From Candidatus Parcubacteria bacterium (GTDB lineage Bacteria; Patescibacteriota; Minisyncoccia; Phycocordibacterales; UBA5272), in contig JBDKFI010000002.1 in the NCBI GenBank assembly GCA_039798825.1, positions 1-34,198 of the forward strand: a stretch of 34,198 nt of DNA, given 5' to 3'. Under the pieces are notes generated by a model. That model saw only the letters and a program-made list of their open reading frames with translations, ran no database searches and was not told where the DNA came from. The translations under genes were made by a program, and so were the position numbers. How positions within the stretch are numbered: position 1 is the stretch's first letter; every line of letters begins with the position of its first letter. This document shows positions 3,129 to 31,666 of this stretch, piece after piece.

Positions 3129-3219
3129 CTAAATCTTGAACTTGCCAAATAATTCTGCTCGACGGAACAAGTAAACTTATCATGTGATGTGGCTACTGGC
3201 CACTCACTTCTCGTCGCGA

Positions 3220-3225
3220 TATACT
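3220..3225 (+). promoter_or_regulatory. -10 box TATACT, 6 nt upstream of ATG 3232
   Basis: gcgaTATACTtccagcATG. Confidence 0.5.
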
Positions 3226-3231
3226 TCCAGC

Positions 3232-3723
3232 ATGGAAAATAACAATCTTCACGAAGTTGTCATTACGGCAATCGTTGTCAAAGATGGAAAGTATTTAATA
3301 ACTCGCAGGTCGGCACAGAAAAAAAGATTTCCTTCTATGTGGACAGTGCCTGGAGGAAAGCTAGAGAAAGACGATTACATCAACACGCCAAAACCAACAA
3401 AAGATTATTGGTACAACGTCCTGGAAAACGTTGTTCGAAGAGAGGTGAAAGAAGAGACAGGAGTAGAGATAACAAACATCGACTATGTTACTAGTTTGGC
3501 AACAGTGCATGCAGACGGAACGCCATCATTTGTGATTTCTGTGATGGCAGATTATGCTTCCGGCGATGTACAACTCCAAGAAGCAGAAACAGACATGCAC
3601 GCGTGGGTGACCCTCGAAGAAGCCAAGACGTATGATCTCATCGGCGGTATCTACGAAGAGTTGCTGATGGCGGATAACCGGAGAAAAGGCATTAGAGAAG
3701 AATGGAAACCTCAAACACTATGA
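3232..3723 (+). CDS. NUDIX hydrolase
   Basis: Nudix box GGKLEKDD...NVVRREVKEETGVE. Start moved to MENNNLHEVV because a -10 box lies inside the longer ORF-track extension. Confidence 0.85.
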   Translation: MENNNLHEVVITAIVVKDGKYLITRRSAQKKRFPSMWTVPGGKLEKDDYINTPKPTKDYWYNVLENVVRREVKEETGVEITNIDYVTSLATVHADGTPSFVISVMADYASGDVQLQEAETDMHAWVTLEEAKTYDLIGGIYEELLMADNRRKGIREEWKPQTL

Positions 3724-6136: not shown

Positions 6137-6212
6137 GGGCGATTAGCTCAGTTGGTAGAGCAGCGCTTTTACACAGCGAAGGTCACAGGTTCGAATCCTG
6201 TATTGCCCACCA
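6137..6212 (+). tRNA. tRNA-Val (anticodon UAC), CCA encoded
   Basis: GGGCGAT TA GCTC AGTTGGTA GAGC A GCGCT TTTACAC AGCGA AGGTC ACAGG TTCGAAT CCTGT ATTGCCC A CCA. Confidence 0.9.
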
Positions 6213-6230
6213 CAGAAACAGTAGTCAAAC

Positions 6231-6257
6231 ATGACACGGTCTCACGTGTCATTTTTG
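6231..6257 (+). terminator. Hairpin plus T-run after tRNA-Val
   Basis: ATGACACGgtctcaCGTGTCATtttt. Confidence 0.55.
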
Positions 6258-6258
6258 A

Positions 6259-6264
6259 TACACT
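6259..6264 (+). promoter_or_regulatory. -10-like TACACT, 7 nt upstream of ATG 6272
   Basis: gaTACACTtactatcATG. Confidence 0.4.
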
Positions 6265-6271
6265 TACTATC

Positions 6272-7009
6272 ATGAACTTCCCAATTTTGTACGAAGATAA
6301 ACATACGCTTGTGATCGACAAGCCGTGTGGCATTATGGTGCATCCAGATGACCGTCAAGACGAAGACACTATCGCTGGATGGATGGCACAAACCTACCCG
6401 ATGGACGGTGTGGGGGACAAAGGAAGGGAGGGTATCGTTCATCGTTTGGATAGAAACACGACAGGCGTGCTCATACTCGCGAAAGACAACATCGCTTTCA
6501 CTACATTCAAGAAGCAATTCAGGGATCACACGACACGCAAAGTGTATCGAGCTATTGTGGAGGGAAACATTAAACACGAAACAGGGATGATTTCTCTTCC
6601 TATCGCTCGTGCGAAGTCAGACTTCCGAAAGCGTACCGTTGTAGATCTTTTCTCTGGCGATGCGCGAGGGGGGGAGCGCGAAGCGATTACGCGCTACAAA
6701 GTGCTTGCTCGTTCAACCGGAGACGATGGCAAGCAGTATTCGTATGTGGAGTGCTACCCGCTCACAGGACGCACGCACCAGATCCGTGCGCACTTTAGAG
6801 GGATACGCCATCCAATCATTGGAGATGATTTGTACGGTTCTGCAACAGGAAAAGATAAGGCTCCTCGATCCATGCTGCACGCGCACTCGCTCACTATTCA
6901 AATTCCAGGGGAGTCGGAAGGATACACCGAAAAGACGTTTATGGCAGATGTGCCACAAGACATGAAAGAAACCCTCACAAAGCTTGGATTTGAACGGGAT
7001 GTCGCGTAA
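6272..7009 (+). CDS. RluA-family pseudouridine synthase (no S4 domain)
   Basis: ILYEDKHTLVIDKPCGIMVHP and HRLDRNTTGVLILAK (catalytic Asp motif). The ORF-track start at 6152 lies inside tRNA-Val, so the start was moved to MNFPILY. Confidence 0.85.
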   Translation: MNFPILYEDKHTLVIDKPCGIMVHPDDRQDEDTIAGWMAQTYPMDGVGDKGREGIVHRLDRNTTGVLILAKDNIAFTTFKKQFRDHTTRKVYRAIVEGNIKHETGMISLPIARAKSDFRKRTVVDLFSGDARGGEREAITRYKVLARSTGDDGKQYSYVECYPLTGRTHQIRAHFRGIRHPIIGDDLYGSATGKDKAPRSMLHAHSLTIQIPGESEGYTEKTFMADVPQDMKETLTKLGFERDVA

Positions 7010-12466: not shown

Positions 12467-12907
12467 ATGGATGAGCCTGTTTTGTTTTACGAGCGTGAAT
12501 ATTACGTATTCTCTAATTTCTCCTCATTTGCTATTGAGTGGAAAGGAAGAGTGTGGATGACATCAGAGCATGTGTATCACTCAGAGCGTTTTGACGACAC
12601 AAAAATGAAAGATGAAATTCATTCGATGCGTTCTGCTCACGATGCTTTTACCTATGCTCAAGTGAACAAACTACTTCAGCGAAAGGATTGGAATGACATT
12701 AAGACAGTCGTTATGAAAAAGATACTTCACGCAAAGGTTGTACAGCATGCATATGTGAAGAAGAAGCTTCTCGAATCTGGTAGTCGTGAAATTATCGAAA
12801 ACTCTTGGCAAGATGATTTTTGGGGCTGGGGCGCAAACAAAGATGGCAAGAACATGCTTGGCAAGCTTTGGATGGAAGTGCGAGACGAAGTTCGTCAGTC
12901 GGCGTAA
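12467..12907 (+). CDS. NADAR-family (YbiA/DUF1768-like) protein
   Basis: FYEREYYVFSNFSSFAIEWKGRVWMTSEHVYHSERF...DDFWGWGANKDGKNMLGKLWMEVR, the characteristic NADAR motifs. Confidence 0.8.
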   Translation: MDEPVLFYEREYYVFSNFSSFAIEWKGRVWMTSEHVYHSERFDDTKMKDEIHSMRSAHDAFTYAQVNKLLQRKDWNDIKTVVMKKILHAKVVQHAYVKKKLLESGSREIIENSWQDDFWGWGANKDGKNMLGKLWMEVRDEVRQSA

Positions 12908-20299: not shown

Positions 20300-20342
20300 T
20301 TGCCGACAATTCTCCACTACGTACGTAGCGAGAATGACAACT

Positions 20343-20380
20343 ACAAACAAAACCACCCGAGATTGGGTGGTTTTGTTTTG
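20343..20380 (+). terminator. Intrinsic terminator directly after rplK
   Basis: acaaacaaaaCCACCCgagattGGGTGGttttgttttg. Confidence 0.75.
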
Positions 20381-20399
20381 TGGAGAGGTTTCTGATAGT

Positions 20400-21518
20400 A
20401 TGGTGGCTATGAACACACGAGAAGTCGGAGCCCTTCCATCTCAAAAATTGATGGAATACATTGCGCAAGGCGCTTTCAAGAACGTCAAGGAATCCCAAGT
20501 CAGTCCGGCGTCGATCGATGTGACTGTCTCTGGTGAATGGTATCGAGTGGATGGGGTGTTTCTTCCAAAGACCGACGAAACCATTCCATCACTCATTGAG
20601 CGCATGAATGGACATCGTCACGCAGTACAAGAGCCACTCGAGCGAGGGGTTGTGTATGTTGCTCGTTTGAATGAAACCTTTTCTCTTCCTGCTGATTTGT
20701 ACGCGTACTGCAATCCAAAGTCTTCTACTGGTCGTCATGACATTCATGTTCGTATTGTTCGCGACGGAACTGCGCGATATGATACGCTCCCTGCGGGGTC
20801 ATCTGGTGATTTGTGGGCGATCATTGTTCCTCGGTCGTACCCAGTACTTCTTCATCCTGGATTTGCCATCAGCCAAGTGCGTTTCTTTAATCAAGATACA
20901 CGGTTTACCGAATCAGACCTCGACATTGAGTGGCGCAGAAAGTCTCTCGCATATCACCTCACAGGTGAAGCGTATTCATATGAAAGTTTTCGTATGAAAG
21001 ATACTGACGGATCGATGCTCCTCACACTTGATCTTTCTCAAGATATTGTTGGGTATGAGTGTCGAGGGTCAAACAAGGTGATTGATCTTGGTTCACCAAA
21101 TGGTTCGATTGACCCGTCTACCCATTTTTATCCTATTAGAAAAACAGGAGACAGTATTCTGCTTCGCAAAGATAGCTTTTATATTCTTTCAACCAAAGAA
21201 GCGCTTCTTGTTCCTCCGCATCTCGCAAGTGAGATGGTAGATATGGATTCACGAACGGGAGAGTTCAGAACTCATTACGCAGGATTCTTTGATCCAGGGT
21301 GGGGGCATGGTAAAGATGGCGAAGGACGTGGTCGCCCGATCACGCTTGAGGTGCGAACGTTTGAAGATGTAGTGGTCACTCACGGGCAGCCTATCGGAAA
21401 AGTTCGTTTTGAAAAAATGTCTGAAATCCCAAATGTTCATTACGATCAGAAAAATTCAAACTACCTCACTCAGTCTGGTCCAAAACTTGCGAAGCAGTTT
21501 AAGGCTTTTGAAAACTAA
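20400..21518 (+). CDS. dcd: 2'-deoxycytidine 5'-triphosphate deaminase, long (about 370 aa) DCD type
   Basis: LPSQKLMEYIAQGAF...ASIDVTVSGEWYRV...CNPKSSTGRHDIHVRI resembles the long DCD family. Start moved downstream of the rplK terminator, and GGAGAGG lies 10 nt upstream. Confidence 0.75.
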   Translation: MVAMNTREVGALPSQKLMEYIAQGAFKNVKESQVSPASIDVTVSGEWYRVDGVFLPKTDETIPSLIERMNGHRHAVQEPLERGVVYVARLNETFSLPADLYAYCNPKSSTGRHDIHVRIVRDGTARYDTLPAGSSGDLWAIIVPRSYPVLLHPGFAISQVRFFNQDTRFTESDLDIEWRRKSLAYHLTGEAYSYESFRMKDTDGSMLLTLDLSQDIVGYECRGSNKVIDLGSPNGSIDPSTHFYPIRKTGDSILLRKDSFYILSTKEALLVPPHLASEMVDMDSRTGEFRTHYAGFFDPGWGHGKDGEGRGRPITLEVRTFEDVVVTHGQPIGKVRFEKMSEIPNVHYDQKNSNYLTQSGPKLAKQFKAFEN

Positions 21519-22000
21519 CGAGTATACGCTGTGATGGAAAGCGGGTAGGGGGTATCATCACCTTCTGATATGGTTTCATTGTGTGTTATGTCCCACTCAT
21601 CCTTGTTGAATGAAGGGAAGAATGTATCGCCATCAAACTGTGCGTGCACGTGTGTGATGATAAGTTTGTGTGCGTACGGTAGAAACGCTTCATAGATTTG
21701 TGCACCGCCAATAACAAACACCTCTTCCTCGCTTGCTGCGTAGCGATCGAGTATATCTTGTGGGGATGTGTATACATCAGCACCTTCGTATGAGAAGTTT
21801 GGGTCCCTCGTTAGAATAATCGTTTGTCGCCCAGGGAGAAGTCTGCCAATAGAAGCAAACGTTTTTCGACCCATAATGATCGGATGACCCATGGTTACTT
21901 CTTTGAAATGACGCAGATCGCGTGGGATTTTCCACATGAGAGCATTCTCTTTCCCGATGACGTTATTATCTGCGATGGCTGCGATGATGGTAAGTGACAT
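21515..22000 (-). CDS. folA: Dihydrofolate reductase
   Basis: IIAAIADNNVIGKENALMWKIPRDLRHFKEVTMGHPIIMGRKTFASIG...VIGGAQIYE. Confidence 0.9.
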   Translation of the reverse strand: MSLTIIAAIADNNVIGKENALMWKIPRDLRHFKEVTMGHPIIMGRKTFASIGRLLPGRQTIILTRDPNFSYEGADVYTSPQDILDRYAASEEEVFVIGGAQIYEAFLPYAHKLIITHVHAQFDGDTFFPSFNKDEWDITHNETISEGDDTPYPLSITAYTR

Positions 22001-22006
22001 AGGGGC

Positions 22007-22951
22007 TTATACAGCGATAGGTGCTTTGATTGCGTCGTGCGGGTCGTAGCCCACAAGTTCAAAGTCGTCGATTGTGAAATCTTCAAGCTTCTTTTTATCA
22101 GGATTAATCTTCATCGTTGGCATTGCTCGTTTATCGTTGCGTCGTGCGAGCTGTTCATCTGCTTGTGCGAGGTGGTTATTGTAGAGGTGAACGTCGCCAC
22201 CTGTCCAGATAAATTCACCAAGTTCCAATCCCACAATCTGAGCGATGATCATCGTCAGAAGTGCATACGATGCGATATTAAAGGGAACACCAAGAAACGT
22301 ATCACAGCTGCGCTGATAGAGTTGGCATGAAAGTTTGCCGTTTGCGACATAGAACTGAAACAGACAATGGCATGGAGGAAGACCCGCTTTAGCCATTTCA
22401 CTTATGTAGGTGACGTCCCATGAGTTGACGATAATTCTGCGTGAGTTTGGATCCGTCTTTAACTGCTCAATGACATTTTGTAATTGATCGATACAAACAC
22501 CTGTTTCTGAATCTTTCCAACATCTCCACTGCTTTCCGTACACTGGTCCAAGTTCACCGTATTCTTTTGCAAACTCCGCATCGTTTTTTACTTTTTCTAC
22601 AAACTCTTTAATGCCCGCATTCCACTCATCGGTTCCTGTTTTTGGGACGGGGATAGTATTTTTTATGAGATACGCTTTGTATGGCCACTCATTCCAGATA
22701 CCGACACCGTTTTCTACAAGGTAGCGAATGTTGGTGTCGCCACGTATAAACCAAATGAGTTCGTGGATGATGGATTTCGTCGCCATCTTTTTAGTTGTCA
22801 AAAGCGGAAACCCTTCTGAGAGATCAAATCTCATCTGGTGACCGAAAATAGAAAGCGTGCCTGTGCCTGTACGGTCGCCTTTCTGTACTCCTTCTTGTTT
22901 AATTCGCTCTACTAAATCAAGGTAGATATCATCGACGTGTTTTGATTGCAT
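22007..22951 (-). CDS. thyA: Thymidylate synthase (ThyA, long form with an insert)
   Basis: [19 protein letters not shown], the catalytic [11 protein letters not shown], and [24 protein letters not shown]...[10 protein letters not shown]. Confidence 0.95.
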
Positions 22952-23093
22952 ATAGAGTACAGTATAGCTTCTTGTGCGTGTTCGTCGATACCGTGTACAG
23001 AAGAAAAAGATGTGGTATCGTAACGTTTTCCAAATGAATGCGACGTGATACGCTTACTGTATAGTAGCCAGCACCAAATAATCACCAAGCCGC

Positions 23094-24272
23094 ATGAAAG
23101 ACAAACTTGTAGAAAAACTCATCAAACAGGAAGATAAGCGTCAGCATTCAGTCATCAACCTCATAGCATCAGAGAATTACGTTTCCCAAGATGTGTTGGA
23201 TGCACTCGGATCAACGCTTACTAACAAGTATTCAGAAGGGTACCCAGGGAGGCGGTATTATGGTGGGAACACCATCATCGATCAGGTGGAAGATCTTGCT
23301 CGCACACGAGCGCTCGCCCTTTTTGATCTTACTCCAAAGAAGTGGCACGTGAATGTACAGCCGCTCTCTGGATCTCCTGCGAACTTGGCGGTGTACTCAG
23401 CACTTGTTCCGATCGGTGGAAAGATCATGGGACTCAAACTATCAAGCGGAGGTCACCTCACACACGGTCAGTCGGTATCGATGACAGGAAAGATATGGAA
23501 GCAAGTGCCCTATGAAGTTGACCCAACAACAGAGAGATTGAATTATAAAGAGGTGGAACGCATTGCGCTTGAAAACAAACCAGATATTATCGTTGCTGGT
23601 TTCACCGCATATCCGCGCACTATTGATTTCAAAAAATTTGCAGCCATTGCGAAAAAGGCAGGAGCGCTTCTTATGGTGGACATGTCACACACTGCAGGAC
23701 TTGTTGCAGGTGGTGCATATCCAAGTCCGTTTCCGTACGCAGATATCGTGACGACAACTGTTCACAAAACACTTCGTGGCCCACGAAGCGCAATGATTTT
23801 TGTTCGAAAAGATGCTCGCGAGATGGATAAGAAAATCGACAAAGCAATTATCCCTGGACTTCAAGGAGGTCCACACAATAATCAGATTGCTGCAGTTGCA
23901 GTTGCTCTTAAAGAGGCAGCTACGCCAGCGTTTAAAAAGTATGCACACCAAGTAGTGAAGAACGCTCAAGCGCTTGGGGATGCACTTCAGAAGCTCGGCT
24001 GGCGCGTTATCACCGGCGGTACGGACTCACATCTATTGTTGATTGACACCTGGGCAGATGGAAAAGGTGTTTCAGGAAAAGATGCAAGCGACAGACTTGA
24101 GAAAGCGGGGATCATTGTGAACATGAATACCATCCCACAAGACCCTCGTGGTGTGATGGATCCGTCTGGAATTCGTATCGGTACCGCAGCAGAAACAACT
24201 CGCGGAAAGAAAGAGAAAGATATGAAAAGTATTGCGCACAAGATAGACGCAGTTCTTCGCTCTAAGAAATAA
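23094..24272 (+). CDS. glyA: Serine hydroxymethyltransferase
   Basis: INLIASENYVSQDVLDALGSTLTNKYSEGYPGRRYYGG and TTTVHKTLRGPR (PLP Lys motif). Confidence 0.95.
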   Translation: MKDKLVEKLIKQEDKRQHSVINLIASENYVSQDVLDALGSTLTNKYSEGYPGRRYYGGNTIIDQVEDLARTRALALFDLTPKKWHVNVQPLSGSPANLAVYSALVPIGGKIMGLKLSSGGHLTHGQSVSMTGKIWKQVPYEVDPTTERLNYKEVERIALENKPDIIVAGFTAYPRTIDFKKFAAIAKKAGALLMVDMSHTAGLVAGGAYPSPFPYADIVTTTVHKTLRGPRSAMIFVRKDAREMDKKIDKAIIPGLQGGPHNNQIAAVAVALKEAATPAFKKYAHQVVKNAQALGDALQKLGWRVITGGTDSHLLLIDTWADGKGVSGKDASDRLEKAGIIVNMNTIPQDPRGVMDPSGIRIGTAAETTRGKKEKDMKSIAHKIDAVLRSKK

Positions 24273-24293
24273 CATAATAATACACACTCACAC

Positions 24294-25001
24294 ATGAAAG
24301 GAAAATTAATTGTTATTGACGGAATCGATGGATCAGGAAAAGCGACACAAGCAGCACTCCTTGCAAAGCGTCTCAAAAAAGAAGGGTATGCAGTAAAGAC
24401 AATAGACTTCCCACGGTACAAGGATAATTTCTTTGGCAAACTCATTGGAGAATGTCTCACGGGTACGTACGGCGACTTCGTTGGGTTACACGCACGCATC
24501 GCTTCGTGTTTGTATGCGGGGGACAGATTTGAATCAAGTAAACAGATACGAACGTGGATAGAGAAGGGGTATGTTGTTATCACCGATCGATACGTGAGTA
24601 GCAATCAAATCCATCAGGGTGGAAAGATAGAAAATTTGAAAGAACGGAAAGTATTTCTTTCATGGCTTGATCAGATGGAGTACAAGGTGTTTGGTATTCC
24701 GAAACCAGATCTCGTCATCTATCTGGACGTTCCATTTGAAGTAAGTGCGATGTGGCTTAAGAACAAAACTGCTCAGAACAAGAAGTCATATTTGAAGGGG
24801 GGTAAAGATACCGCCGAAGAAAGTATGAAATATTTACAAGACTCACGAGATAGTGCGCTCTTGCTTGCGCGTCAAAACAAGAACTGGACACGTATCGCGT
24901 GTTGTAAGGGTATGGTGTGTATGCCACCTGAACCTGTGGGTGAAGAAGTGTACAAAAGAGCACTCAAGCTTTTTGGAAAATATGCAAAAACTAAAGATTA
25001 A
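24294..25001 (+). CDS. tmk: Thymidylate kinase
   Basis: LIVIDGIDGSGKATQAALLAKRL (P-loop), the DRY motif (ITDRYVSS) and PDLVIYLDVP. Confidence 0.9.
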   Translation: MKGKLIVIDGIDGSGKATQAALLAKRLKKEGYAVKTIDFPRYKDNFFGKLIGECLTGTYGDFVGLHARIASCLYAGDRFESSKQIRTWIEKGYVVITDRYVSSNQIHQGGKIENLKERKVFLSWLDQMEYKVFGIPKPDLVIYLDVPFEVSAMWLKNKTAQNKKSYLKGGKDTAEESMKYLQDSRDSALLLARQNKNWTRIACCKGMVCMPPEPVGEEVYKRALKLFGKYAKTKD

Positions 25002-26156: not shown

Positions 26157-27860
26157 ATGAATTCCTATGCGAGCATCTACAGCGCACTTGAAGAATTGTG
26201 CGAGACCTACAGTGTACAGGCGTCCTTTTCGCTTGATCAACCAGAAGATGGAGATAACGGTGACTACGCAACAAACGTTGCGTTTCTTGTCGGCAAAGTA
26301 ACAGGTGAGTCTCCTCGCATCGCCGCAGAGAAGCTCGTGGAAAAACTTTCACCAGTTGTAGATGAGCTCGTCGAAACAATTGAAGTCGCAGGACCTGGGT
26401 TCATTAATTTCTTTTTAAAGGACGATGTGCGAACCGATGAAGCTGAAACAGTTGCTATGACTGACATGGTAAACGTCGTCACACAAGGTGGTGTGATTGT
26501 TGAGTACACTGATCCGAATCCGTTTAAACTTTTCCACATTGGACACTTAGTGCCAAATGCAATTGGTGAGTCAATCGCCCGTATGTATGAAGCAAAAGGG
26601 TATCGTGTATCTCGTGTGTGCTACCAGGGAGACGTCGGGATGCATGTTGCGACCACACTCTGGGGTCTTTCACAGTTTGGCGAAGAACCACCCCACGAAC
26701 AAGCGACGCTTCGTGAAAAGGTTGCGTATCTTGGGCGCGCGTATGCGCATGGCACACAGGCGCTCACTGACAACGAAGCAGTCAAACAGGAGATAATTGC
26801 CATCAATAAAAAAATATTTGCACGAAGTGATGAAGCGATAAATAAAACGTATGATCTTGGAAAGAGGTGGAGTCTTGAATATTTCGAGACGCTCTACAAG
26901 AAGCTCGGTACTGCATTTGACCACTACGTTTTTGAAAGTGAGGTAGGGGATGACGGTGTGCGTATTGTGAAAGAAAACTTGGGCACCGTATTTGAAGAAT
27001 CAGACGGAGCAATTGTATTTAAAGGAGAGCGTGTAGGTCTTCATACACGAGTGTTTGTAAATTCACAAGGGCTTCCAACATATGAAGCAAAGGAGCTTGG
27101 CAACACCTACAAAAAAGAAAAGCTTGTCCCGCATGCAGAGCTCTCTGTTGTGGTTACCGCGCATGAGGTCGATGAATATTTTAAAGTTATGAAAGCGGTA
27201 CTTGCAGAGATCGACGCACCTCTTGGAGAAAGACTTCTTCACGTATCACACGGTATGCTTCGTTTGCCTGAAGGGAAGATGTCATCACGTACGGGAAACA
27301 TTGTACCCGCAGAAGAGCTCATAGACTTAGTGGAAGAGCGCATCAAAGATCGACTTGAAGACATGCAGGTGGAAGGTGAAGAGAAAGTACAATTAGTGAA
27401 CGATATCGCAGTTGGTGCGATCAAGTTTTCAATACTTAAAAGTGCGCCAGGTAAAGATATGATTTTTGACTTCGAGAAGTCTCTTTCGTTTGAAGGAGAT
27501 TCTGGTCCATACCTTCAGTATACTCACGCGCGCATTGCTGCTGTGCTTGCAAAAGCTCTACAAGCAAAGATTGGTATTGAAAGCTACAGTGTGGAGCGTT
27601 CGGAGCGAGAGCTTGAGCGATCAATCATTGAGTATGCGCAGGTGCTTGAAAAAGCATGCAAAGAGATGGGTCCACACCACCTTGTTCAGTATTTGCTCGT
27701 CCTTGCGCGTGCATTTAATAGTATGTATGCCCGTCAACAGATAGTGGATGAGTCAAATAAAGAAACAAGTGCATACTATGTCATGCTTGCAACTGCTACC
27801 AAAAACATTCTTGCGCACGGGCTCTCTACGCTCGGTATCAAGGCACCCGAGAAGATGTAA
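26157..27860 (+). CDS. argS: Arginine--tRNA ligase
   Basis: VEYTDPNPFKLFHIGHLVPNAIG (HIGH), a GKMSSRTGN motif (class I KMSKS equivalent) and the C-terminal DALR anticodon-binding region. Confidence 0.95.
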   Translation: MNSYASIYSALEELCETYSVQASFSLDQPEDGDNGDYATNVAFLVGKVTGESPRIAAEKLVEKLSPVVDELVETIEVAGPGFINFFLKDDVRTDEAETVAMTDMVNVVTQGGVIVEYTDPNPFKLFHIGHLVPNAIGESIARMYEAKGYRVSRVCYQGDVGMHVATTLWGLSQFGEEPPHEQATLREKVAYLGRAYAHGTQALTDNEAVKQEIIAINKKIFARSDEAINKTYDLGKRWSLEYFETLYKKLGTAFDHYVFESEVGDDGVRIVKENLGTVFEESDGAIVFKGERVGLHTRVFVNSQGLPTYEAKELGNTYKKEKLVPHAELSVVVTAHEVDEYFKVMKAVLAEIDAPLGERLLHVSHGMLRLPEGKMSSRTGNIVPAEELIDLVEERIKDRLEDMQVEGEEKVQLVNDIAVGAIKFSILKSAPGKDMIFDFEKSLSFEGDSGPYLQYTHARIAAVLAKALQAKIGIESYSVERSERELERSIIEYAQVLEKACKEMGPHHLVQYLLVLARAFNSMYARQQIVDESNKETSAYYVMLATATKNILAHGLSTLGIKAPEKM

Positions 27861-27946: not shown

Positions 27947-27952
27947 AGAACT

Positions 27953-28204
27953 ATAAGCGACGAAGGGAGTAATCACCCCTGAGCTTTGGGAAGAAATGTT
28001 TGTCTGAAGACCTCTAACACCTTCGGTCGGGCACGTAGAACCCTCACACATAAGCCCATTTCCAGTTTTGAATACTAGAATTTTCTAAAAACAAAACTGG
28101 GGATGGGGAAACAAGGTGGTACCACGGGAATCAATTGAAACTCGTCCTTGGAAAACAATTTATACAAATTGTTTCTCGAGGACGAGTTTTATTTTTATCA
28201 CCTT
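27953..28204 (+). promoter_or_regulatory. T-box riboswitch leader of ileS, with terminator/antiterminator
   Basis: The conserved T-box core AAGGTGGTACCACGGG lies at 28113-28128, with a UGGU to pair the tRNA NCCA end. The Stem I base is GCGACGAAGGGAGTAAT (GA/K-turn plus AGUA-like). A long terminator hairpin pairs 28138-28147 (AAACTCGTCC) with 28180-28189 (GGACGAGTTT), followed by TTTTATTTTT. Confidence 0.8.
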
Positions 28205-31200
28205 ATGAACGACAACACACAGAACAAACCAGCAACCGTGAGCGACAAGGAGCTCGAAACGCTCGCTTTTTGGCAGGAGCACAAGATTTTCGAGAAGTCT
28301 GTTGAAACACCGGCAGGCGAAACCCCAAAGGGTCAGTTTTCGTTTTATGACGGACCTCCATTTGCTACAGGACTTCCTCATCATGGCACTCTCATGGCAG
28401 GAACAGTGAAAGATGTGATACCTCGATATCAGACGATGAAAGGAAACAGTGTTCGTCGTGTCTGGGGATGGGATTGCCACGGTCTTCCAATTGAGAATTT
28501 GATCGAAAAGAAGCTCGGTCTTCAGTCTAAAAAAGACATTGAAGAGTTTGGTATCGACAAGTTCAACAAGGATGCATTTGAAAGTGTGCTCCAATACGAA
28601 GAAGAGTGGAAGAAAGTCATTCCTCGACTAGGTCGTTTTGTCGATATGGATCATCCGTACAAAACGATGGACGCGACCTATACTGAAAGTATTTGGTGGG
28701 CATGGAAGACACTTTATGAAAAAGGCCTTGCGTATGAGGGAAACAAAATGATGCACATCTGTCCGAGATGCGAGACACCGCTTGCCCAGTCTGAGGTAGG
28801 ACTTGAATATCACGACGTGACAGACCTTTCTGTGACTGCGAAGTTTGAATTGGTTGATGAACCGGGGACCTATGTGCTTGCATGGACCACTACACCTTGG
28901 ACGTTACCTGGAAACGTAGCGCTCGCCGTTCATAAAGACATCGACTATGTAAAAGTAAAAAGTTCTTTTGAAGGGAAAGATGCTTATTTTATTTTGGCGA
29001 AGAAGAAAGTAGAGGAGTATTGTAAGGAGAGTGGCTCATATACTGTTATTGAGGAATTTACTGGTGAGAAGTTGATCGGCAAAACATATAGACCAATTTT
29101 CCCATACTTTATCGACAAAGAAATCGAGCACAAAGAAAACATTTGGAAGATTTGGCATGCAGACTTCATTACCGATGTTGACGGTACTGGTATTGCTCAC
29201 GAAGCGCCAGCTTTCGGTGCAGAAGACATGGAGCTTGCAAAGGCGAACAACATTCCTGTGATCAAACACGTGAAGATGGACGGTACCTTCACTGATGATG
29301 TGACTGATTTCGCGGGTATGAAAGTAAAAGTGAAGGACGATACACAGTCAGCAGACATTGAGATCATCAAATATCTTGCGCACGCTGGTTCGCTTTTCGA
29401 AAAGCATAAAATCGTTCACTCATACCCACTCTGCTGGCGATGCAAGACGCCACTTCTTAATTATGCGACAAGTAGTTGGTTTGTGGATGTGCCAAAGATG
29501 AAAGAAAAACTTCTTTCTGAAAACCAGGGTGTTGGATGGACACCGGAGCATATTCGCGATGGTAGGTTTGGTAAGTGGCTGGAAGGTGCGCGTGAGTGGG
29601 CGGTGTCTCGTTCTCGCTATTGGGGAGCACCGCTTCCTGTGTGGAAATCTGAGGCTGGTGAAGTGAAGATTATAGGCTCCCTTAAGGAGCTTGCAGAGCT
29701 TTCAACACGTAAACCAAAGAACACGTATTTCGCGATACGACACGGTGAAGCACAAAGTAACGTCGATCGTGTCATCGATAGTTTAGGTGATCCAGATAAT
29801 CACTTAACGGAAACTGGAAAAGAGCAGGCGCGTCACGCTGGACATTTCGCGAAAGAGCAGGGGATAGATGTGGTTATCTACTCACCTCTTCTTCGTACAG
29901 AAGAAACAGCACAGATTATTCACGAAATTTCTGGAGCTCATTTAAAGATGGATGATCGTCTTCGGGAAATGCATGCAGGAACCTTTTCTGGAAAAAGTTT
30001 GGACGAGTTCCATAAGTTTCAGCGTAGCGGTACGCTTCGTCTCGACGACGCAATTGCAGGCGGTGAATCTCATCGCGATGTGATGCATCGAATGATGAGC
30101 GCACTTCATGCATGTGAACAAGAATATGATGGAAAGAAGATTCTCTTCGTGACACACGGATCTCCGCTTTGGATGCTTGAGTCTGCTGCACACTTAAGAA
30201 CAGATGAGGAAATCTACGGGGATATCATGATGCATGAAGATACCTCTCCGGCGCACGCTCACATTGTTCCAGTTCATCCGCTTCTTGTGCCACGCGACGA
30301 GACAGGAGCTGTTAATCTTCATCGTCCATATATCGATGAAGTAGAACTTGAGGTTGATGGTACGCGATTTACCAGAATCGGGGACGTGTTTGATTGTTGG
30401 TTTGAGTCTGGGTCAATGCCGTTTGCTTCTCTTCACTATCCGTTTGAAAATAAAGAAACATTCGATAAGAATTATCCAGCCGACTTTATCGCAGAAGGTA
30501 TGGATCAAACGAGAGGATGGTTCTACTCGCTTATCAACTTAGGTGTTGGGTTATTTGATCGCACACCATATAAACATGTAATCTGCACGGGGCTCATCAA
30601 TGGAGCGGATGGTCAGAAAATATCCAAGAGCCTTGGCAATTACACAGACCCACTCCTTTTGGTTGATAAGTTTGGTGCTGACGCGTTTCGGTACTATCTC
30701 ATGTCAAGCACGGTGATCAAAGGGGAAAGTATTTCGTTTAAAGATACTGAGCTTGAAGATGTGTACAAAAAGCTCATCATGCGTCTCGATAACGTACTAT
30801 CACTGTACGCAATGAATAAAAAAGATGGGGTACAGCGAAGTGCGACATCAGACGATGTGCTTGATACATGGATCATTAACCGTGTGCACGAAGTTGTGCG
30901 TGCTGCAACGGATGGGTATGAAACGTACAAACTTGATGAAGCAACTCGTCCAACAGATCAATTCGTCGATGATCTTTCGGTGTGGTACGTTAGGCGTGCA
31001 CGTTCACGACTGAAAGGGGATGAGGGAGATGAGGTCCAGGCGCGTACCTACGCCACACTTTCATACGTGTTGTGGGTACTTGCTCGCACACTTGCACCAG
31101 TAATGCCATTTATTGCAGAGCGTATCTACAGGATGGTTGACGGTGAGAAAGAGTCAGTTCATTTGGAACGTTGGCCTGTGGCACCAGAAGTAGATAGTGA

Positions 31201-31666
31201 GTCACTCGTGGTAATGGCGCGCATACGAGAAGTAGTGACCGAAGCATTATCCCTTAGAACACAAGCGAAAATCGCCGTTCGTCAACCGCTCCAGAAGCTC
31301 ACCCTTAAAGACGAGATTCCTACGTTGTACCACCAGATTCTTCTCGACGAATTAAACGTCAAAGAGCTCGCATTCGACGCATCACTTGCGTCGCCATGTG
31401 TGCTTGATACCACGATGACACCGTCTCTTCAAGAAGAGGGAGATGTGCGTAACCTTATGCGCGCAGTTCAAGACGCGCGAAAAGAACAAGGGCTCACACC
31501 GAAAGATGTAATTACACTCAGTACTTCCTATGAAGTACCAGAACAGTTCCGTACCGATCTCATGAATACGTGCAAAATTTCTTCTATCACACAAGGAGAG
31601 GGGGAGTATATGGTTGAAATATCAACCGGTCAGATATCGTTTGATATACAACGTGCTGGTGTCTAA
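28205..31666 (+). CDS. ileS: Isoleucine--tRNA ligase (type 2-like) with an internal histidine-phosphatase domain insertion
   Basis: PPFATGLPHHGT (HIGH), editing-domain motifs TTPWTLPGN and GTGIAHEAPAFG, and GQKISKSLGNY (KMSKS). An inserted segment at 29705-30316 carries RHGE...SPLLRTEETA...LREMHAG...FVTHGSP. Start moved to MNDNTQNK because the ORF-track start lies inside the T-box terminator. Confidence 0.95.
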   Translation: MNDNTQNKPATVSDKELETLAFWQEHKIFEKSVETPAGETPKGQFSFYDGPPFATGLPHHGTLMAGTVKDVIPRYQTMKGNSVRRVWGWDCHGLPIENLIEKKLGLQSKKDIEEFGIDKFNKDAFESVLQYEEEWKKVIPRLGRFVDMDHPYKTMDATYTESIWWAWKTLYEKGLAYEGNKMMHICPRCETPLAQSEVGLEYHDVTDLSVTAKFELVDEPGTYVLAWTTTPWTLPGNVALAVHKDIDYVKVKSSFEGKDAYFILAKKKVEEYCKESGSYTVIEEFTGEKLIGKTYRPIFPYFIDKEIEHKENIWKIWHADFITDVDGTGIAHEAPAFGAEDMELAKANNIPVIKHVKMDGTFTDDVTDFAGMKVKVKDDTQSADIEIIKYLAHAGSLFEKHKIVHSYPLCWRCKTPLLNYATSSWFVDVPKMKEKLLSENQGVGWTPEHIRDGRFGKWLEGAREWAVSRSRYWGAPLPVWKSEAGEVKIIGSLKELAELSTRKPKNTYFAIRHGEAQSNVDRVIDSLGDPDNHLTETGKEQARHAGHFAKEQGIDVVIYSPLLRTEETAQIIHEISGAHLKMDDRLREMHAGTFSGKSLDEFHKFQRSGTLRLDDAIAGGESHRDVMHRMMSALHACEQEYDGKKILFVTHGSPLWMLESAAHLRTDEEIYGDIMMHEDTSPAHAHIVPVHPLLVPRDETGAVNLHRPYIDEVELEVDGTRFTRIGDVFDCWFESGSMPFASLHYPFENKETFDKNYPADFIAEGMDQTRGWFYSLINLGVGLFDRTPYKHVICTGLINGADGQKISKSLGNYTDPLLLVDKFGADAFRYYLMSSTVIKGESISFKDTELEDVYKKLIMRLDNVLSLYAMNKKDGVQRSATSDDVLDTWIINRVHEVVRAATDGYETYKLDEATRPTDQFVDDLSVWYVRRARSRLKGDEGDEVQARTYATLSYVLWVLARTLAPVMPFIAERIYRMVDGEKESVHLERWPVAPEVDSESLVVMARIREVVTEALSLRTQAKIAVRQPLQKLTLKDEIPTLYHQILLDELNVKELAFDASLASPCVLDTTMTPSLQEEGDVRNLMRAVQDARKEQGLTPKDVITLSTSYEVPEQFRTDLMNTCKISSITQGEGEYMVEISTGQISFDIQRAGV

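Follow-up and report, generated by a model that had tools for sequence, protein, structure and literature searches.

Aminoacyl-tRNA synthetases belong to the most thoroughly studied enzymes. Those of class Ia shuttle the CCA end of the tRNA to a nested hydrolytic domain, connective peptide 1 (CP1), and the accessory domains of synthetases, with roles in editing, tRNA binding and signalling, have repeatedly revealed new biology. Among isoleucyl-tRNA synthetases (IleRS), the type-2 enzymes, which are eukaryote-like and mupirocin-tolerant, are represented by 8C8V and by the Thermus thermophilus enzyme 1ILE. Compact histidine phosphatases of ~200 aa with an R-H...R...E...H catalytic set are represented by PhoE/YhfR of Geobacillus stearothermophilus (1H2E/1EBB), PspA (4IJ5) and GpgP (4PZ9/6S2Q). 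Here, likeness to both groups was found within a single gene. The stretch of DNA analysed, 34,198 nucleotides of contig JBDKFI010000002.1 from a Candidatus Parcubacteria bacterium (hereafter the window), carries an ileS gene whose product resembles the type-2 IleRS over the whole synthetase body, from the Rossmann fold with its HIGH-type and KMSKS motifs, the CP core, the CP1 editing domain, CP2 and CP3 to the anticodon-binding and type-2 C-terminal domains, and contains a nested domain with the size and catalytic set of the PhoE-like phosphatases.

The ileS gene (28205..31666, + strand, as are all ileS features given below) is one unbroken open reading frame (ORF) of 1153 aa, running in the ORF listing and its translation from an ATG at 28205 to a stop at 31666. 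The ATG was taken as the start because it fits the consensus of the family N-terminus in the homolog alignment, MNxNxxPK; an alternative upstream TTG at 28148 falls within a terminator-like hairpin. Pfam analysis of the whole protein revealed tRNA-synt_1 (PF00133) in two stretches (E 5e-129) and, between them, His_Phos_1 (PF00300) at aa 510-663 (E 2.1e-33, 116 bits, gathering cut-off 21.7). When the 204-aa segment was searched alone, the PF00300 match was 120.5 bits (E 9.4e-35), far above chance level. In the alignment with 8c8v, the IleRS2 of Priestia megaterium, query residue 497 corresponded to residue 475 and query residue 702 to residue 485, and the solved enzyme has a 9-residue turn where the window protein has ~204 residues. 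Relatives without the insert in GTDB (Uhrbacteria, Falkowbacteria and others) have 1-10 residues at the insertion point and read '...ELEELS-G-EKVTDLHK...', and the alignment with them sets the extra segment at residues 501-697. The branch-1 histidine-phosphatase insert accordingly covers 29705..30295, ~197 aa, and lies in the hairpin of the CP3 subdomain as named in Candida/yeast IleRS (PMC7191050, PMC7955072).

A first-pass annotation of the window, made from the letters and the translation, had placed the insert at 29705-30316; its start was exact, while its end was about 20 nt generous when judged by the insert-less relatives. The ORF, its length and its frame, the class-I hallmarks (PHHGT, TTPWTLPGN and KISKS) and every coordinate of the catalytic signature stood as it had read them, and the histidine-phosphatase profile fell between the two synthetase stretches as it had expected. 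Its statement that the linker is short in ordinary type-2 IleRS agreed with the lengths just given (9 aa in 8c8v and ~1-10 aa in the insert-less relatives), and the question it raised, of whether the insert folds autonomously, was taken up by the structure prediction described below.

The host protein exceeded the NCBIfam cut-off for ileS (TIGR00392, 837 bits vs 621), again in two stretches separated by the insert. The closest PDB entries were the IleRS2 8c8v (E 3e-204) and the IleRS1 1ffy (E 2e-88). Its C-terminal organisation is that of type 2, with matches to IleRS2 and eukaryotic IleRS at E ~1e-200 versus 1e-88 for IleRS1, with DUF5915 present and the zinc-binding domain (ZBD) absent. C-terminal of the insert, Pfam placed Anticodon_1 at aa 887-1031 followed by DUF5915, and PF08264 and PF19302 were also matched. 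Motif conservation was followed over 120 homologs. The HIGH-type signature, PHHGT (aa 58-62, 28376..28390), has P58, H59 and G61 invariant and follows the family pattern PH.G[HST], in which the fourth position is H in ~76 homologs, S in 20 and T in 18, the fourth His being missing in 38/120. The window protein has T at this position of a motif that normally contacts ATP, and by this alignment the Thr is a sub-lineage deviation within the family and not a loss. The CP1 editing motif TTTPWTLPGN (aa 228-237, 28886..28915) was identical in 120/120 homologs, the second editing motif, GTGIAHEAPAFG, was nearly invariant, and WAVSRxRYWGAPLPVW, DCW[FY]ESG and DQTRGWFY were conserved throughout. The CP2-CP3 linker AREWAVSRSRYWG (aa 462-474, 29588..29626), also nearly invariant, lies 27 residues ahead of the insert. 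Beyond the insert, the C-terminal part of the synthetase (30296..31663) contains the rest of CP3 (LHRPYID), the second Rossmann half (DCWFESGSMPFA, DQTRGWF) and the anticodon-binding and type-2 C-terminal domains. The KMSKS-type motif within it is KISKS (aa 805-809, 30617-30631), and reads K[LIM]SKS in 119 of the homologs and KLSKR in the remaining one. With its HIGH-type and KMSKS motifs, its CP1 editing motifs and its anticodon domain all conserved, the host is judged to work as an IleRS. Two special classes were considered for the protein and rejected, namely the acquired mupirocin-resistance IleRS (MupA NF000257, 627 bits; MupB NF000258, 661 bits; cut-off 1900) and the IleRS with a GNAT domain (NF040702, 313 bits vs a cut-off of 1999, with no acetyltransferase match in Pfam).

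The insert carries the complete set of branch-1 catalytic residues. The RHG motif (R512, the nucleophile H513 and G514; 29738..29746, or 29738-29749 with the following Glu of RHGE) aligns to R10 and H11 of PhoE 1H2E, and the second phosphate-binding Arg, R564 in SPLLRTEETA (29894..29896), aligns to the corresponding PhoE Arg and is invariant. The general acid/base Glu, E588 in LREMHAG (29966..29968), is invariant in close homologs and is E/D in nearly all of 173 domain copies, which were taken from the 150 nearest 50%-identity representatives of the insert. The second catalytic His, H651 in VTHGS (30155..30157), is likewise invariant in close homologs and is absent only from truncated or partial copies. 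Across the 173 copies the pattern R-H-[GA]...R...[ED]...H was intact, the exceptions being copies cut by contig ends. In alignments of 81 and of 120 homologs, R512, H513, R564, E588 and H651 were all invariant, as were N519, S560, G592, E621 and R629, further positions typical of the family. Averaged over the columns of the homolog alignments, the commonest residue had a frequency of 0.60 in the insert, compared to 0.85 and 0.72 in the two IleRS parts, which points to an insert that evolves faster than the synthetase body while its catalytic residues are under strict selection.

When AlphaFold2 was run on the whole protein, the insert had a predicted local distance difference test score (pLDDT) of ~93-95; modelled alone, it had a pLDDT of 96.1 and a predicted template-modelling score (pTM) of 0.92. 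The best Foldseek matches of the insert were PspA (the Hydrogenobacter phosphoserine phosphatase), PhoE, GpgP (the mycobacterial glucosyl-3-phosphoglycerate phosphatase), TIGAR and Rv3214, at E ~1e-13 and template-modelling (TM) scores of 0.72-0.76. The nearest solved relative by sequence was PhoE 1EBB/1H2E (E 2e-13), to which every catalytic residue could be matched in the alignment. The mutases gave target-normalised TM scores of 0.52-0.62, below the compact phosphatases. Identity as a true phosphoglycerate mutase was also rejected by profile (TIGR01258, 30 bits vs 81.7; GpmB, 86 vs 261; other models of cofactor-dependent phosphoglycerate mutases (dPGM) far below their cut-offs), and the insert reached no NCBIfam equivalog cut-off. 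Since the nearest folds are compact phosphatases and the dPGM models stay below their cut-offs, the insert is of phosphatase type and not of mutase type. In the models it is an autonomous, compact PhoE/PspA-like histidine phosphatase at the tip of the CP3 hairpin. Taking architecture and catalytic competence as one claim, its prediction as a phosphatase is close to certain, and we infer that it is an active phosphohydrolase and that it has been retained because of its tethering to the synthetase.

The histidine-phosphatase superfamily also includes the protein phosphatases SixA, Sts-1 and PGAM5, and kinase toxins are able to inactivate class I synthetases, as HipA does with GltX and HipT with TrpS. 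It is very unlikely, although consistent with a weak SixA profile match (E 8e-10), that the insert removes an inhibitory phosphate, such as the mark of a HipA/HipT-like kinase, from the synthetase or a partner and so serves as a built-in antidote. The patchy occurrence and the copy-number variation described below would fit such a conflict scenario. However, SixA is far from the best profile match, the nearest folds are those of lidded phosphatases that act on metabolites, no kinase was seen in the window, and we know of no kinase that targets IleRS.

The surroundings of the insert bear on whether catalysis is its role at all. In the subclade of the window the zinc-knuckle cysteines of CP3 (CxxC...CxxC) are gone, the corresponding positions reading KSEAGE (29645-29662) and EVDGTR (30350-30367), and many His_Phos_1 enzymes are dimers. 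These observations would suit a non-catalytic module, acting as a ligand sensor, as a dimerisation surface or as a prop for a CP3 that lacks its zinc knuckle. Such a role is highly improbable, as none of the five catalytic residues varies in an insert that otherwise diverges. Moreover, many distant insert-bearing IleRS keep CxxC...CxxC on both sides of the phosphatase, so that the insert is not a mere substitute for the zinc knuckle.

The nested architecture was recovered in 120/120 of the best full-length homologs (PF00300 together with the IleRS domains; 62-78% identity, 1138-1202 aa), which come from NCBI, JGI, ENA and Logan assemblies under names such as Nomurabacteria, Pacebacteria and Parcubacteria. 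An assembly chimera or a frame-shifted gene fusion was considered and rejected, and its probability is negligible: the frame is single and uninterrupted, the same architecture occurs in >120 independent assemblies and in at least 22 GTDB genomes, the GC content is continuous over both insert junctions, and the linkers are predicted with confidence by AlphaFold2. As all 120 best homologs and at least 22 GTDB species representatives share the architecture, misassembly is excluded. These comparisons of homologs mark the nested two-enzyme gene as real and vertically inherited.

Among GTDB species representatives, at least 22 insert-bearing loci were present among the matches listed, and they belong to Minisyncoccia/Paceibacteria, Yanofskybacteria, Spechtbacterales, Peregrinibacteria/Peribacterales and some automatically labelled metagenome-assembled genomes. 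IleRS2 without the insert were listed in Uhrbacteria, Falkowbacteria, Saccharimonadia and some Peribacteria, and also in Bacillota, Chlamydiota, Actinomycetota and others. One apparently different insert at the same site, in an Acidimicrobiia locus (L076), proved by hidden Markov model (HMM) mapping to be an ordinary insert-less IleRS. In a rough neighbour-joining tree of the synthetase body, insert-bearing IleRS fell into at least 3-4 groups interleaved with insert-less ones; the tree was used only to call the distribution patchy, being too rough for counts of gains and losses. The trait is widespread yet patchy in Patescibacteria. Near the ileS of insert-less genomes, no free-standing His_Phos_1 gene that could represent a fusion precursor was found within +/-6 kb.

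The spread of the domain was followed with the insert alone, as the first-pass annotation had proposed. An exhaustive phmmer search against 1.84 billion representatives gave 13,696 matches at E<1e-3, and the best 150 were classified with HMMs. Nearly all long proteins among these 150 were IleRS or fragments of IleRS in which the domain occupies the identical position in CP3; ~57 were free-standing proteins of ~160-255 aa, and a few were tandem two-domain proteins, one of them a dinoflagellate transcript. This set is taxonomically mixed. Beyond what the first-pass annotation could see, the trait is clade-wide, exists in multi-copy forms and extends to ArgRS (arginyl-tRNA synthetase) hosts. The closest free-standing homolog (P0132, L085:6889-7506), with 42% identity, is located between secY and adk in the reverse orientation, within a ribosomal-protein cluster of a small-genome bacterium.

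Several IleRS carry more than one His_Phos_1 domain, the two-copy variants being 1380-1490 aa long and their copies confirmed by Pfam. Two tandem copies in CP3 were found in P0130, P0136, P0141, P0172 and P0238 and in the GTDB Peribacterales loci L016 (4570-8985), L018, L019 and L020. In P0124 and P0139, one copy is in CP3 and one directly before the anticodon-binding domain; in P0177 and P0189, one copy follows the WF[DE]SG motif and one precedes the anticodon domain; and the fragment P0122 bears four, including one in the region of CP2. All of the extra copies keep the catalytic residues. Within the tandem group, identities were 50-64% between first copies (A-A) and 41-47% between second copies (B-B), but only 23-28% between the two copies (A-B). 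Because A-A and B-B identities are well above A-B, the tandem duplication is old and has been stably inherited as an orthologous pair.

Among the nearest relatives of the insert, three fusions to proteins other than IleRS were found: an ArgRS with a C-terminal His_Phos_1 (P0157), the tRNA-modification enzyme TsaC/Sua5 with a C-terminal His_Phos_1 (P0178, L089:977-2140), and a His_Phos_1-PUA-ATP sulfurylase protein (P0267, L088:8001-9707), whose gene adjoins a sulfotransferase in a glycosyltransferase/Asn-synthase glycan cluster. The ArgRS fusion was represented by three clusters among 120 ArgRS relatives (P0157; P0278, 88%; and P0279, 49%), which come from independent assemblies and stand among otherwise ordinary Parcubacteria ArgRS. 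In these proteins the phosphatase begins 4-8 residues past the terminal Met of ArgRS. IleRS remnants around the fused domain were looked for and none were present, the domain being a clean C-terminal addition.

Genomic context analyses revealed that the two synthetase genes are neighbours. In the window, argS (26157..27860, + strand) is directly upstream of ileS, and in some relatives argS carries the phosphatase instead of ileS. The gene order in the window is argS, ileS with the nested histidine phosphatase (HP), recO and a large surface protein. In L081 (10001-12070) and L084 (2981-5050) the order is argS::HP, recO and the homologous large protein, with no ileS between. In L082 (10001-12163) and L083 (1349-3511), argS::HP is directly followed by an ileS of a different clade, of which the contig ends at aa 448, ahead of CP3; the nearest longer relatives of this ileS are mostly without PF00300, one being with it. 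As read from these sequences, the arrangement hints that the phosphatase sits on one synthetase or the other, IleRS or ArgRS.

The dominance of IleRS among the long proteins of the best 150, the extra sites and tandem copies within IleRS, the ArgRS C-terminus and the TsaC fusion together indicate a link to synthetases, and on these grounds we lean towards some functional coupling of the phosphatase to aminoacylation. The form of coupling that is favoured, although tentatively, is that the insert removes phosphate or pyrophosphate from the 3' end of the tRNA. The phosphatase would receive the flexible 3'-CCA end as the nested CP1 editing domain does. It would then take a blocking 2'/3'-phosphate off A76, or a 3'-pyrophosphate in two steps, lesions of the kind that RNases leave behind or that toxSAS-type toxins introduce. 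Their removal would restore a chargeable 3'-OH beside the aminoacylation site, the insert thereby acting as a pre-charging repair domain; in two-copy variants the two steps may be split between the copies, or the copies may form a pseudo-dimer.

The position of the insert is in line with this proposal. In yeast IleRS, the CP2-CP3 linker 453-ARDWNVSRNRYWG-465 lines the tRNA 3'-CCA/reveromycin pocket (PMC7955072), and CP3, the subdomain that hosts the insert, begins at the equivalent linker. The first-pass annotation had put the site close to where the 3' end of the tRNA passes; the CP3 location and a CCA-pocket linker 27 residues upstream agree with it in part, as a matter of sequence position only. 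Its functional suggestions, offered as speculation, were a phosphatase for tRNA ends or for a nucleotide by-product, and both still count among the foremost candidates. Three of the four hosts of the phosphatase deal with tRNA. In addition, 3'-pyrophosphorylated tRNA is a lesion caused by toxSAS, which blocks aminoacylation and can be tRNA-specific (10.1101/2021.04.30.441581; PMC11559606). The patchiness, variable copy number and fast divergence of the domain resemble conflict-driven traits more than core metabolism. A more specific version, in which the insert would be a synthetase-embedded immunity against tRNA-end-modifying toxins and the two-copy forms would carry out two hydrolytic steps, is unlikely on present evidence.

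Several observations weigh against an action on the tRNA end. Comparison of nested and free-standing copies showed no difference in charge, no conserved residue specific to nested copies and no mark of RNA binding, and the nearest structures are phosphatases of small metabolites. Extra copies at the start of the anticodon domain or at the ArgRS C-terminus are probably far from the acceptor end, and ATP sulfurylase, one of the fusion partners, is unrelated to tRNA. Repair limited to one or two tRNAs needs a tRNA-specific threat, and we know of none demonstrated in these organisms. Finally, a single ancestral insertion that was rearranged locally may account for both the multiple sites in IleRS and the fusion to ArgRS, which would in that case not be independent evidence that tethering is selected for.

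In a second explanation, the insert would be a generic, broad-specificity PhoE-like phosphatase of metabolism, lodged in a surface loop that tolerates insertions within an essential, constitutively expressed gene. It would be kept solely to meet a need of the cell for this activity, with no link to aminoacylation, the other copies having arisen by rearrangement within ileS or with the neighbouring argS. This possibility deserves serious consideration, even if it is doubtful. Apart from the indistinguishable charge and conserved positions of nested and free-standing copies and the small-metabolite neighbours in fold, the varying insertion positions imply that no precise geometry is required, the distribution is patchy with close relatives that thrive without the insert, the ArgRS::HP gene adjoins ileS in a manner compatible with local DNA shuffling, and the nearest free-standing homolog is in a housekeeping cluster. 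On the other hand, every fused partner found in the nearest 150 is an adenylate-forming enzyme and IleRS dominates overwhelmingly, while no valyl- or leucyl-tRNA synthetase (ValRS or LeuRS) is found as a host among these 150 despite the same architecture. The two-copy forms that are old and inherited as orthologous pairs, and the up to four intact copies kept in one IleRS, likewise speak against it.

The identity of the partners also raises an unlikely third explanation, in which the phosphatase hydrolyses a by-product, either pyrophosphate (PPi) or an adenine nucleotide (AMP or 3'-phospho-adenosine compounds), and thereby pulls the activation reaction or relieves product inhibition. IleRS, ArgRS, TsaC/Sua5 and ATP sulfurylase all attack the alpha-phosphate of ATP and release PPi, and ATP sulfurylase is classically coupled to a pyrophosphatase. 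A diffusible substrate would make the position on the host irrelevant, which matches the variable sites, and the fold neighbours are small-molecule phosphatases. Cleavage of phosphoanhydrides is reported for branch-2 histidine phosphatases (PMC13573052). The branch-2 enzyme AppA of E. coli is an example. No ppa gene was found within the window, which at 34 kb is weak evidence in favour. However, neither tethering nor the existence of several divergent copies is explained by a substrate that diffuses, a core function would not be expected to be patchy unless it complements ppa, and the nearest-150 set is taxonomically mixed, with the tandem transcript of a dinoflagellate included. With a sulfotransferase beside the ATP-sulfurylase fusion, a 3'-phosphatase acting on 3'-phosphoadenosine 5'-phosphate or its phosphosulfate (PAP/PAPS) would fit equally well. 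Furthermore, hydrolysis of PPi is not known to us from any enzyme of branch 1.

Upstream of ileS, the argS-ileS spacer contains a candidate divergent T-box-like leader (27951..28152, + strand). It matched RF00230 with 31.3 bits, which is below the gathering threshold of 93, at E 2.5e-5 in a search of 421 nt. The T-box core AAGGUGGUACCACGGGAA aligned with high posterior probability. A short stem-I loop presents an AUC (Ile) codon, and the segment GGGAGUA-AUC-ACCCC may be the Ile specifier loop. The leader is followed by a terminator-like hairpin with a T-run (28139-28188), which overlaps the upstream TTG start. When the region ahead of ileS was searched in 30 further loci of Patescibacteria, the motif did not recur.

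Elsewhere in the window, an HNH endonuclease-domain ORF of 155 aa (2191-2658, + strand) lies between tRNA-Arg(GCG) (2028-2100) and tRNA-Ser(UGA) (2707-2795) and may be the remnant of a mobile element. A pseudouridine synthase ORF (6152-7009), listed from a TTG at 6152, overlaps tRNA-Val(UAC) (6137-6212), and its true start is probably further downstream. A NUDIX hydrolase (3184-3723, + strand) and a NADAR-domain protein (12467-12907, + strand) both act on nucleotide-derived substrates. A thymidylate-synthesis cluster (20334-25001) consists of a 394-aa protein similar to dCTP (deoxycytidine triphosphate) deaminase (DCD_N/DCD_C), folA and thyA on the minus strand, followed by glyA and tmk, in a type of genome that is usually described as poor in nucleotide biosynthesis.

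The gene thus encodes a catalytically intact predicted hydrolase within the catalytic core of IleRS, conserved over a large bacterial radiation, with 2-4 copies per protein in some lineages and a counterpart on ArgRS. Should the tRNA 3' end prove to be its substrate, the insert would provide the first case of tRNA ends being repaired by a domain of a synthetase, and a new defence against toxins that target tRNA. Should it instead clear PPi or nucleotides, ultra-small genomes would have wired product removal onto adenylate-forming enzymes, and the chemistry of branch 1 would be extended. Even with no role in aminoacylation, it would represent a clean natural insertion of a domain into an essential enzyme, usable as a lineage marker in Patescibacteria. 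The literature searched gave no description of a histidine phosphatase in any aminoacyl-tRNA synthetase, in agreement with the first-pass annotation, which knew of no phosphatase-bearing IleRS, and none of a GNAT domain in IleRS. The words phosphatase, CPR and GNAT are absent from a 2026 preprint on the domain architectures of 96,219 IleRS. Since the sequences are public and their Pfam matches precomputed, the architecture is implicit in the databases. Owing to the nested insert, such IleRS are often labelled by NCBI only as 'class I tRNA ligase family protein'.

When compared to the described systems, the window protein differs from the solved type-2 IleRS by a 197-aa phosphatase in place of a 9-residue CP3 turn and, in its subclade, by the loss of the CP3 zinc cysteines and by HHGT instead of HxGH. 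PhoE, PspA and GpgP are separate proteins, most often dimers, whose small substrates are known, whereas the insert is nested and shares 22-28% identity with them. The best NCBIfam match of the insert was the RNase H-acid phosphatase of the Rv2228c/RnhC type (NF005567, E 1.4e-25), in which His_Phos_1 is fused to a nucleic-acid enzyme and the role of the phosphatase is unclear; in that protein the fusion is terminal and the partner is RNase H, and the insert scored 90 bits against a cut-off of 326. The IleRS recognised by curators as 'ileS_w_GNAT' offers the likeness of an IleRS that hosts a second catalytic domain, nested or appended, although the accessory domain is a different one and the window protein stays below that cut-off by the scores given above. 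ArgRS::His_Phos_1 shares the phosphatase subfamily (~35% identity to the insert) and the bacterial radiation, and its gene adjoins ileS or recO in the same synteny, but its domain is appended and not nested, and the fusion is rare. The conceptual analogue is the CP1 editing domain of IleRS, ValRS and LeuRS, which is likewise a hydrolase set into a connective peptide of the Rossmann fold and works on the 3' end of tRNA; its fold and its chemistry, the ester hydrolysis of mischarged tRNA, are unrelated, and CP1 is universal while the phosphatase is lineage-specific and patchy. The IleRS2 and PhoE-like halves are each unremarkable in their own families, and it is their combination in one protein that is unusual.

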